Shown: one piece after another, positions 17,896-19,739 of the stretch
Position numbering within the stretch: position 1 is the first letter of the stretch
Layout: the number at the start of each line of letters is the position of its first letter
Sequence record: PZ150741.1
Length of the DNA stretch: 48,243 nt
Source: a phage
Strand: one strand, 5' to 3'
The notes under the pieces: generated by a model
Databases searched by the model: none
What the model saw: only the letters and a program-made list of their open reading frames with translations
What the model was told of the DNA's origin: nothing
Program-made: the position numbers and the translations under genes

Positions 17896-17925
17896 AACTA
17901 AGGCCCCTTTCGGGGCCTTTTTCTC
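17896..17925. terminator. bidirectional terminator AGGCCCC-TTTC-GGGGCCT plus T5
   Basis: Same hairpin as at 10590 and 29202; between convergent genes. Confidence 0.8.
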
Positions 17926-18100
17926 ACTCACTTTTGAATGGCATTTCATAGAAGTTAGTTAACTGACCTCGGTCACTCCGTTCTGTCATTTCTTTCGAAG
18001 CCTCTTCCTTACTGCCCACGGCGTAAATATCTACCCACTCATCCCATTCTTCGTCATATACACGGATTACGTATATTGTTTTCATTACATTCTCACTCAT
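17924..18100 (-). CDS. hypothetical small acidic protein
   Basis: Track ORF 17924-18142; start probably internal Met (18100 or 18085) to avoid 50-nt overlap. Confidence 0.4.
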   Translation of the reverse strand: MSENVMKTIYVIRVYDEEWDEWVDIYAVGSKEEASKEMTERSDRGQLTNFYEMPFKSE

Positions 18101-18323
18101 CAATGTTGCTTCGATACTCCCGTAACTTCTCCAGACTTTCAATTGCTTCCGCTAAGTCGGTTCCGGTGTCCTTGTGCCCGCGAAGACCCATACACAATAG
18201 TTTCTTCAATGCGTGCTGTAGTGCGGGGTCACGGATGTCGAAGGCACGGAGAACATCGTAAACGTCTACGGTCATAGTGCTGCCGTGAGTGTTTGTCATT
18301 GTTCGGTTGTATTTTGAAGTCAT
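18093..18323 (-). CDS. hypothetical protein (76 aa)
   Basis: Track ORF; ATGA-coupled to upstream phosphoesterase gene. Confidence 0.45.
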   Translation of the reverse strand: MTSKYNRTMTNTHGSTMTVDVYDVLRAFDIRDPALQHALKKLLCMGLRGHKDTGTDLAEAIESLEKLREYRSNIDE

Positions 18324-19450
18324 CCCAGCATCTCCGGTGAAATAGTTAAACGTGCAACCTCGCCATATTCGGCGCTATAAGTAATTACATTTGCACTACG
18401 GCCCGACATCCACCCACCGCGTGAGGCGTAGGCATCTTTAGCCGCTAAGGTGCGGTGTTGCTCAACAACCATGTTACGGCTTTCTACAATTTTCTGGTGG
18501 TGTAGGTGGCCTACGTGGGCATAGCTGTAAACACTCTCGCCGAATGCTTTGCGGAACTTGGCAATCATAACGGGTTCAATAGCGTCGAATCGCGCCTTAT
18601 GGCCGTGGTGAAAGAATAGAGTCGTTCTGCCGTGTTGCACCATCTTGTAAACATCCGGCGACGTATCGACGAACACACGCGGCTCATTGTCGTACAGTGT
18701 ACTGAACATCTCCGCCAACCAAATCATTCCGCTTTCGTCGTGGTTCCCTTGCACGATAAGCAAGCGAACATTTTTATGCTTAACGAGGGCCATGCCGACA
18801 ACACGGCGGACCATACGAATCATGTAGCGCACAAGTTTCTGATAGCGCGTGTCAGCGTCAAGAACATGACCGCTTGCGGGTGTAACTGCATCCAGACTAT
18901 CGAAGTGAGCGAGGTCGCCCAGTAGATTAATAACTCCTGTTCCTGCATCCGGCGCTTTCTGAAACGCAGCATCGAACCAGCGAGAAAACAGGTCTTCCGC
19001 GATTTTCATGTCCCAATCGTCGCCGCTCTCGTCGGCCCATGCCAGCATACCGAGATGGAAATCAGATACCGTGTAAAGATTGAGCAGCTTGTCGTCACGT
19101 TTGGCGCGGGCGGCTTTAACAGGCACAACTGGCGTAATCTCTGACTTCATGCCTTCAATCACGGCTTTCATCAACTCGACCTGACGTTCGGCATCAGTGT
19201 CGGTCTTAACCCATTGCAACTTAGTGTTGCCGAACTCGTCCACAAGTGACGACGTTCCTTTAATCTTGTAGCCGTCCGGGACAAGGTGGCTGACGTCACG
19301 CCCGTGGCCTACGCCTTTCTTAGCCAGCTTCGCTTTACGGATACGAATAACGCGGTCTGAGATGCCGTATTTACGGGCAATGTCGATATTCTTCATCCCG
19401 GCGTTCAATTCTTCCTGTAATTGTTCGTCGGTTATTTTCTTCTGGGCCAT
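18320..19450 (-). CDS. HTH DNA-binding domain fused to calcineurin-like metallophosphoesterase
   Basis: N-terminal IARKYGISDRVIRIRKAKL HTH; phosphoesterase motifs DFHLG, GDLAHFD, GNHDE, HHGH, GHLHH in canonical order. Confidence 0.65.
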   Translation of the reverse strand: MAQKKITDEQLQEELNAGMKNIDIARKYGISDRVIRIRKAKLAKKGVGHGRDVSHLVPDGYKIKGTSSLVDEFGNTKLQWVKTDTDAERQVELMKAVIEGMKSEITPVVPVKAARAKRDDKLLNLYTVSDFHLGMLAWADESGDDWDMKIAEDLFSRWFDAAFQKAPDAGTGVINLLGDLAHFDSLDAVTPASGHVLDADTRYQKLVRYMIRMVRRVVGMALVKHKNVRLLIVQGNHDESGMIWLAEMFSTLYDNEPRVFVDTSPDVYKMVQHGRTTLFFHHGHKARFDAIEPVMIAKFRKAFGESVYSYAHVGHLHHQKIVESRNMVVEQHRTLAAKDAYASRGGWMSGRSANVITYSAEYGEVARLTISPEMLG

Positions 19451-19488
19451 GCTTACTTCCTCGTGTTTAGGATTTGTCCTATACTAGC

Positions 19489-19680
19489 TCACTTCTCTTT
19501 GACATTCGAGTTGCAAGCCCAGATTAAAATAAATACCCACGGCAATAGAATCCAACCGAGAAACAGGTTAGCCATAAATATTGCCAACTTCGCTTTATGA
19601 TTACGGAAGTACGCAACCAGGAAAGGCGCGAAATAGGCGAGAAGTGCAAACAGAATTAATGAAACTGGTAAACTTGACAT
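19489..19680 (-). CDS. small two-TM membrane protein (63 aa)
   Basis: Track ORF 19489-19695; ATG at 19680 preceded by GGAGGAA; two hydrophobic helices. Confidence 0.5.
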   Translation of the reverse strand: MSSLPVSLILFALLAYFAPFLVAYFRNHKAKLAIFMANLFLGWILLPWVFILIWACNSNVKEK

Positions 19681-19710
19681 TTTAAATTCCTCCATTGTTG
19701 GTGTAGGTGA

Positions 19711-19739
19711 ATAGTACCCTATTATATTGGGGTGCGCAA
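19711..19739 (-). promoter_or_regulatory. sigma70-like promoter (TTGCGC-17 bp-TACTAT) for reverse island
   Basis: Reverse complement TTGCGCACCCCAATATAATAGGGTACTAT; near-identical to 10864-10892. Confidence 0.65.

Follow-up and report, generated by a model that had tools for sequence, protein, structure and literature searches.

In the window examined here, a 48,243-nucleotide stretch of phage DNA (sequence record PZ150741.1), four genes at positions 17896-19739 run against the surrounding tail genes, and we consider it probable that they form a conserved non-structural operon of the Guernseyvirinae. This operon would consist of a metallophosphoesterase (MPE) gene as a fixed anchor and two exchangeable positions, slots A and B, with slot A occupied in this phage by an exclusion-type protein of the Imm family. 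The source phage is a Kagunavirus (Guernseyvirinae), and its block region is about 90% identical to that of relatives such as ZCEC5. A megablast search with the 4-kb region returned 438 phage records, nearly all from Guernseyvirinae of Salmonella or Escherichia, and Escherichia phage ZCEC5 covered 100% of the region at 90.2% identity. A preliminary description of this DNA had presented the block as an accessory island of novel composition; it was largely right in what it observed, while it overstated the strength of the promoter, one of the gene overlaps and the novelty.

The four open reading frames (ORFs) reported on the minus strand are confirmed by the ORF list, and all four have homologs in other phages, which makes them genes rather than chance ORFs. 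In the order of reading they are Imm (19489-19680, 63 amino acids [aa]), the MPE with an N-terminal helix-turn-helix (HTH) domain (18320-19450, 376 aa), and two small proteins, p3 (18093-18323, 76 aa) and p4 (17924-18085, 53 aa, acidic). They are bounded on the left by the plus-strand tail-tube or "major tail" gene (16723-17895; phrog_290, E 6.6e-80), named tail tube or putative tail protein in the annotation of relatives. On the right follow the plus-strand genes for the tail assembly chaperone G/GT (19848-20629, of which 19848-20264 is the chaperone ORF of the ORF list) and the tape measure protein (20607-22895), both placed by ORFs and the annotation of relatives, where the same succession of tail-tube gene, reverse-strand genes, tail assembly chaperone and tape measure is found. 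The 63-aa form of Imm starts at a second ATG (19680) that has GGAGG 8 nucleotides (nt) upstream and agrees with the annotation of phage K1G; an alternative ATG at 19695 would give 68 aa. Of the ATGA overlaps said to couple the genes, only the one between MPE and p3 (18323-18320) is present, and from this sequence arrangement p3 is predicted to be translationally coupled to the MPE gene. The start of p4 is less certain (18085, 18100 or 18142). Most likely it is 18085, as the initial MKTIY is conserved in relatives and annotated in this way in DUEC01; this leaves a 7-nt gap after p3, whereas the ATG at 18100 would overlap p3 by 8 nt.

What defines the block is its pattern of constancy and exchange among relatives. 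Ten reference proteins were located in 71 related loci taken from IMG/VR. Approximately 44 of these contain the two boundary genes, and in each one the MPE gene is found between the boundaries in reverse orientation, while its flanking genes occur in at least 12 combinations. Slot A, the promoter-proximal position, carries Imm in two allele classes (approximately 97% and 63 to 77% identity), a 109-aa phrog_14165 protein with a signal-peptide-like N terminus, other proteins of 107 or 120 aa that look secreted, or a single-pass membrane protein, or it is empty; all of the alternative proteins have transmembrane (TM) helices or signal-peptide-like N termini. Slot B, the distal position, holds p3 alone, a 66-aa protein with p3, p3 with p4 as in the window, or p3 with a Rha/KilAC antirepressor-like protein. 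At other loci it holds a PNKP-type HAD 3'-phosphatase together with a P-loop protein resembling deoxynucleoside monophosphate (dNMP) kinases, with or without p4, and at some loci an HNH endonuclease or a small membrane protein is added. The GC content follows the same division, being 0.52 in the MPE gene, like its neighbours, and 0.43 to 0.47 in the flanking block genes. The MPE gene is thus the core and the flanks are mosaic cargo, which makes the block a conserved operon that offers two slots for cargo. Slot A would supply interchangeable envelope proteins and slot B interchangeable small cargo.

Three of the Imm replacements, AG11_23 (L005:2609-2938), L047:1752-2114 and L048:4596-4919, are 107 to 120 aa long, and beyond their signal-peptide-like N termini the mature parts begin with a similar, Cys-containing stretch. 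They may represent one secreted family (phrog_14165) that serves as an alternative envelope-acting protein.

These distributions bear directly on the idea that the four genes belong to a single new accessory system in which a membrane protein cooperates with a DNA-binding phosphoesterase, acquired as a moron that serves anti-defence or host takeover, which we now regard as very improbable. The opposite orientation, the block's own terminator and a plausible promoter speak for such a system, as do the tight packing of the genes with one ATGA overlap and the lower GC content of the flanks. The components, however, assort independently: homologs of the MPE were found in 2,012 phage records by tblastn and homologs of Imm in 368, mostly from Guernseyvirinae, and slot A switches among Imm, secreted proteins, a TM protein and nothing beside an unchanged MPE gene, so that membrane protein and phosphoesterase are not a co-adapted pair. 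The MPE gene is also present at this junction throughout the subfamily, while other phages have it in replication modules, and none of the four proteins matches a PADLOC model; the PADLOC and NCBIfam scans of all four yielded nothing useful. Nor is the composition beyond assignment to anything described, as had been claimed, since GenBank relatives annotate a "superinfection immunity protein" and a "DNA repair exonuclease / calcineurin-like phosphoesterase" at this place.

The moron interpretation as such survives in part. Measured against the morons of HK97 and HK022, the block has its own terminator, but presence in some relatives and absence from others, combined with a deviating GC content, characterizes the flanking cargo and not the block as a whole. 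The expectation that the island would be variably present at this junction holds in the same way for the flanking genes and fails for the constant MPE gene, with its local GC content and its place in replication modules of other phages. Expression from a prophage, another moron trait, does not apply to a virulent phage, and the papers found on these phages describe them as lytic isolates. What the preliminary description had recognized as a separate, convergently terminated unit of non-structural genes within the tail module is supported.

The 63-aa product of slot A is, by sequence, a member of the T4 Imm superinfection-immunity family. It matches PF14373 (Imm_superinfect) with 47.6 bits against a cut-off of 27.9 (E 1.6e-12) and phrog_1039 ("immunity to superinfection") with E 4e-24, and BLASTP aligns it with T4 Imm at 28% identity over 54 aa (E 2e-10); T4 Imm itself scores 58.2 bits on the PF14373 model. 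Two hydrophobic segments, residues 1-26 and 31-58 of 63, agree with the two-TM membrane protein that had been described. T4 Imm binds the tape measure protein, and its R33A and W50A substitutions weaken exclusion (preprint 10.64898/2026.03.06.709160); R26 and W43 of the window protein align with these two residues. Among the three functions that had been put forward, superinfection exclusion is therefore favoured by the profile matches, the alignment with T4 Imm and the retention of R26 and W43. The component is also already known, as many of its homologs carry the annotation of immunity proteins, and the Jerseyvirus SeF1 paper discusses an Imm homolog, gp_027, which by its numbering probably comes from the same block.

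By analogy with T4 Imm, which attaches to the tape measure protein and prevents pore formation, it is plausible that the window Imm mediates superinfection exclusion: it would insert in the inner membrane of the infected cell and block the tape-measure-mediated translocation of DNA by related phages that arrive later. Both are small inner-membrane proteins of virulent phages from the same Pfam family. In contrast to the 83-aa T4 protein of a myovirus, whose gene lies among DNA-metabolism genes, the protein described here has 63 aa with two predicted helices, belongs to a siphovirus and is encoded inside the tail module, adjoining the tape measure gene. [quoted passage not shown] HK97 gp15, however, is YebO-like and thus of an unrelated family, is expressed from the prophage of a temperate phage and is a single-gene insert absent from relatives, whereas the window phage is virulent and its Imm gene fills one slot in a conserved reverse operon of several genes. 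Cor of T1 (ST30) offers a further parallel as a reverse-oriented exclusion gene at the edge of the tail cluster, bracketed by terminators, but it belongs to another protein family and targets the outer-membrane receptor FhuA rather than an inner-membrane step.

The choice of protein in slot A is correlated with the sequence of the adjacent tail genes. We compared 35 related loci in which the tail-tube genes are 88 to 97% and the MPE genes 93 to 98% identical, and found that the slot A type tracks the allele of the neighbouring chaperone G/GT and residues 1-480 of the tape measure protein. Where slot A holds an Imm of approximately 97% identity, the chaperone is 97% and the N-terminal part of the tape measure protein 98% identical; with an Imm of approximately 71% these values are 56% and approximately 52%; and where the 109-aa secreted protein replaces Imm, the chaperone is 50% identical and the N-terminal part of the tape measure protein is unrecognizable. 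Over its hydrophobic C-terminal third, the tape measure protein remains 87 to 95% conserved in all three groups, and 2 of the 35 loci, both recombinant (L034 and L068), depart from the rule. Simple linkage of adjacent DNA may account for this co-variation. That the exclusion gene is kept beside the chaperone and tape measure genes because its specificity matches the tape measure variant it binds is a tentative idea that we rate as rather unlikely, although the reported binding of T4 Imm to the tape measure protein makes matched cassettes of exclusion protein and tape measure worth testing.

The anchor of the operon is a full-length member of phrog_704 ("DNA repair exonuclease", a name that is itself a prediction), matching over residues 3-375 with E 3.9e-166. 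The family is carried by Guernseyvirinae, T1-like Drexlerviridae, phages of Klebsiella, Vibrio and Campylobacter and the temperate phage mEp021, and an exhaustive search with the window protein gave 4,555 clusters at 50% identity. We drew the alignment from this clustered search, as the 120 proteins listed in another homolog search were all relatives of 97 to 99% identity and unsuitable for the purpose. In 52 homologs of 31 to 50% identity, residues D130, H132, G178, D179, N236, H237, H282, G314 and H317 are invariant, and because they cover the DxH, GD, GNH(D/E), H and GHxH motifs, the metallophosphoesterase motif set is complete. The AlphaFold model, with a pLDDT (predicted local distance difference test) score of 92, consists of an N-terminal three-helix HTH, an insert of a beta-hairpin plus helix, and an MPE core that extends to the C terminus and has the calcineurin-like beta-sandwich fold. 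In many members of phrog_704, the N-terminal domains match Fis, sigma-70 region 4, LysR or LuxR-type HTH, so that HTH plus MPE is the architecture of the family. The HTH-metallophosphoesterase fusion that had been read from the sequence is hence upheld by motifs, model and HTH matches, and it is the same architecture as in K1G gp22, to which the protein is 98% identical, and in T1 ST16 and mEp021_11. From these other members the window protein differs in location only, lying in the tail module rather than in the DNA-metabolism regions where T1 and mEp021 carry the gene.

Fold searches place the MPE closest to the nucleases PolD-DP1, Mre11 and SbcD, and a PDB sequence search gave only a marginal match for the HTH. 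Identity to Mre11/SbcD and PolD DP1 is 12 to 17% over approximately 190 to 210 aligned residues; in contrast to Mre11/SbcD, the MPE has no Rad50/SbcC-type partner gene in the block and no evident capping domain, and it carries the N-terminal HTH and the beta-hairpin/helix insert instead. Its action may be likened to that of Mre11/SbcD, but it is not a member of that family. As a complete binuclear-metal site is tethered to a DNA-binding domain, the protein most likely acts in phage DNA metabolism as a DNA-directed phosphodiesterase or nuclease, which would bind DNA through the HTH and cleave phosphodiester bonds.

The surroundings of the gene in other phages are those of DNA metabolism. In mEp021 it lies in the replication operon between the genes of a Zn-ribbon protein and an HNH endonuclease, after which a gene for a DnaB-type replicative helicase follows, and in T1 it (ST16) is located behind the helicase/Dam region, with a terminator of its own. 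In a metagenomic lambdoid contig it stands between the primase and antiterminator Q genes, and in another contig it adjoins a divergent PolA and DnaB arm. The replication genes of the window itself (primase, helicase, methyltransferase, polymerase, exonuclease, helicase-primase and a Gp2.5-like single-stranded DNA-binding/annealing protein) are all on the minus strand, so that the reverse block shares their orientation.

In three phage groups that are unrelated to one another, the gene directly downstream of the MPE gene encodes an HNH endonuclease (L030:6585-7079, L038, L039 and L067; T1 ST15, L010:42028-42510; mEp021_10, L006:5121-5624), a pattern expected for homing endonucleases aimed at a conserved core gene. 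Jerseyviruses have two MPE alleles, approximately 88% and 55% identical to that of the window (L012, Salmonella phage GSP006; horsemountain hits H55 and H100), and p3 stays approximately 91% identical beside the divergent alleles, which suggests allele replacement within the operon.

As to the substrate of the MPE, host-DNA breakdown and end-processing are the leading guesses. In the first case the enzyme would be a nuclease that degrades the host chromosome and supplies nucleotides for phage DNA synthesis, an assignment that we hold to be doubtful. T1 and TLS degrade host DNA and reuse its nucleotides, and according to the TLS paper the responsible genes have not been identified; T1 encodes a family member in ST16, and the HTH domain would target DNA. 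Furthermore, in 16 of the approximately 44 loci the next genes encode the PNKP-type 3'-phosphatase and the dNMP-kinase-like P-loop protein, in keeping with nucleotide salvage. This support is purely circumstantial, however, and host-DNA degradation by Guernseyvirinae is an assumption; the gene is also found in the replication operon of mEp021, a temperate phage, and the salvage-type neighbours are absent from the window and from most relatives.

The same pair of neighbours can be read differently, namely as partners of an end-healing 2',3'-cyclic or 3'-phosphate esterase that, together with polynucleotide kinase/phosphatase, repairs RNA or DNA cut by defence nucleases. The PNKP HAD-phosphatase and the P-loop kinase follow the MPE gene directly in K1G and 15 other loci, and some bacterial Pnkp enzymes contain an MPE-type phosphatase domain. 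Nevertheless, we find this role quite improbable: the polynucleotide kinase (PNK) pair is missing from the window and most relatives, being present in approximately 72 of approximately 450 records, the PNK gene of T1 lies approximately 35 kb from its MPE gene, and no ligase gene is nearby, while the HTH domain suggests double-stranded DNA rather than tRNA as the target. A functional link between MPE and PNK is weakened by this minority distribution and by the distance between the two genes in T1.

MPEs also include phosphodiesterases of cyclic nucleoside monophosphates (cNMPs), and one of these, Rv0805, ranks third in the Foldseek search (E 1.8e-8). Hydrolysis of nucleotide second messengers (cNMPs or cyclic oligonucleotides), which would blunt signalling-based host immunity, nonetheless seems to us very improbable as the role of the enzyme.

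Less can be said about the two slot B proteins of the window. Free-standing in Guernseyvirinae, p3 (phrog_2452) is found in 774 phage records, and its model (pLDDT 88) has a beta-hairpin and three helices with no informative structural match; it is a widespread small domain. This domain also forms the C-terminal approximately 65 residues of a 193-aa protein of Acinetobacter phage P711 (L007:2635-3216) and the C-terminal part of the 252-aa bas20_0033 of Nonagvirus FritzHoffmann (L009:2416-3174), whose gene stands between QueE and Gat-QueC in a cluster for 7-deazaguanine DNA modification; in these larger proteins the N-terminal parts have no Pfam match. In PHROG, p3 matches only the C-terminal ends of long profiles, and this had raised the idea of a truncated remnant of the K1G ATP-binding or PNK genes. 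BLASTP similarity was found to neither K1G protein, and the C-terminal occurrence of the domain in unrelated larger proteins of other phages likewise counts against a remnant. A motif resemblance to DUF3310/SaV-like proteins was likewise not supported, as 0 of 26 members had a DUF3310 match and the hhalign probability against a DUF3310 protein was 0.5%. Its neighbour p4 is confined to Kagunavirus, with 23 records in tblastn at 62 to 100% aa identity and a conserved length, and has no match in Pfam, PHROG, PADLOC or NCBIfam.

The operon ends at a hairpin that it shares with the convergent tail-tube gene. This bidirectional intrinsic terminator, AAGGCCCC-TTTC-GGGGCCTT at 17900-17919, has T-rich tails on either side and folds strongly on both strands (-15.4 kcal/mol, z -5.5, on the plus strand; -20.2 kcal/mol, z -4.7, on the minus strand); the terminator scan detected it on the minus strand. 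In five phages of two genera, Kagunavirus and Jerseyvirus, the stem is invariant while the loop varies (TTTC, GAAA or GTTT), which is good evidence for a structural element. The GC hairpin terminator acting in both directions was accordingly well recognized in the preliminary description. This does not extend to the "near-consensus sigma70 promoter" placed at 19711-19739: its hexamers, TTGCGC-17-TACTAT with the -10 at 19716-19711, match the consensus at 7 of 12 positions. By hexamer scoring, the minus-strand region 19711-19749 contains a second, overlapping candidate with a higher score, AGCACA-17-TATAAT (-10 at 19726-19721, 9 of 12), whose -35 hexamer reads ATCACA in most relatives, giving 10 of 12. 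Neither was reported by the consensus promoter scan, which found 6 sites where 4.8 are expected by chance. The hexamer positions of the TTGCGC candidate are kept in Jerseyvirus AG11 (TTGCGC-17-TATTAT); since the whole intergenic region is conserved, this positional conservation lends the candidate little weight. A promoter for the reverse operon in this region is plausible from the sequence, and host RNA polymerase would start near 19711-19749, read through Imm, MPE, p3 and p4 and stop at the shared hairpin, in the direction of the replication arm and against that of the tail genes.

Timing would fit such a separate unit, and we infer that the reverse operon is transcribed early. In RNA sequencing (RNA-seq) of a close relative, the Imm homolog falls into a kinetic class that differs from that of the capsid and tail genes and is shared with reverse-strand DNA-metabolism genes. 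Expression values of the phage for the block genes were not found in the supplementary files of the Kagunavirus RNA-seq paper.

Several observations weigh against our interpretation of the block as an operon with an exclusion protein and a DNA-directed enzyme. Both promoter candidates are weak by consensus, and in the same RNA-seq study, whose time classes are coarse, the class of the Imm homolog is named "late", an odd timing for an exclusion protein. The MPE stays below the Pfam gathering scores (Metallophos_2, 20.7 against 27; Metallophos, 17.9 against 21.5), a shortfall that the fold search offsets, and literature searches did not find an experimental study of any phosphoesterase of the phrog_704 family. 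The block contains no gene for a Rad50/SbcC partner, a scan of nine minus-strand ORFs (111 to 767 aa) in the replication arm gave no SMC-like protein, and the neighbours in relatives are small cargo genes.

Back-to-back with the reverse-operon candidates lies a putative divergent promoter at 19727-19754 on the plus strand, TTGGGG-16-TGcTAGAAT, which matches the consensus at 8 of 12 positions, has TG upstream of the -10 as in an extended -10 and may serve the chaperone and tape measure genes. The intergenic stretch 19760-19800, upstream of the candidate promoters, is highly conserved even in Jerseyvirus AG11 and contains a small hairpin (CGGG-AACCA-CCCG) with CTTTTC after it on the minus strand. 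A strong terminator-like hairpin of nine pairs, eight of them G-C, followed by TTTTT lies at 20400-20423 on the plus strand, inside the frameshift-extension part of the chaperone GT frame and ahead of the start of the tape measure gene, into which it might attenuate transcription. An Rfam scan of the whole window gave no match. At the level of the whole record, positions 1-4670 are repeated at 43577-48243 with 99.94% identity and a 3-base difference in length, which indicates a genome of approximately 43.6 kb that was read past its own start; one ORF call differs between the two copies (2877-3416 and 46526-46990).

For annotation, our findings mean that the reverse block is a standard feature of the Guernseyvirinae that is already annotated in relatives, and not a new system. 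Its MPE anchor belongs to one of the larger uncharacterized enzyme families of phages, T1 included. As the genes behind host-DNA degradation in T1-like phages are still unidentified, the MPE is a reasonable candidate, and a biochemical test of it would be of wide reach.

Kagunaviruses and Jerseyviruses are candidates for phage therapy, and an Imm-type gene with distinct alleles could decide whether phages interfere with one another within a cocktail. The co-variation of slot A with the tape measure protein offers a cheap and testable handle on the specificity of exclusion. If the link proves functional, Guernseyvirinae would carry exchangeable cassettes of an exclusion protein and its cognate tape measure that define exclusion groups. 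This would extend the interaction between T4 Imm and the tape measure protein to siphoviruses and would explain why exclusion genes are found inside tail modules.

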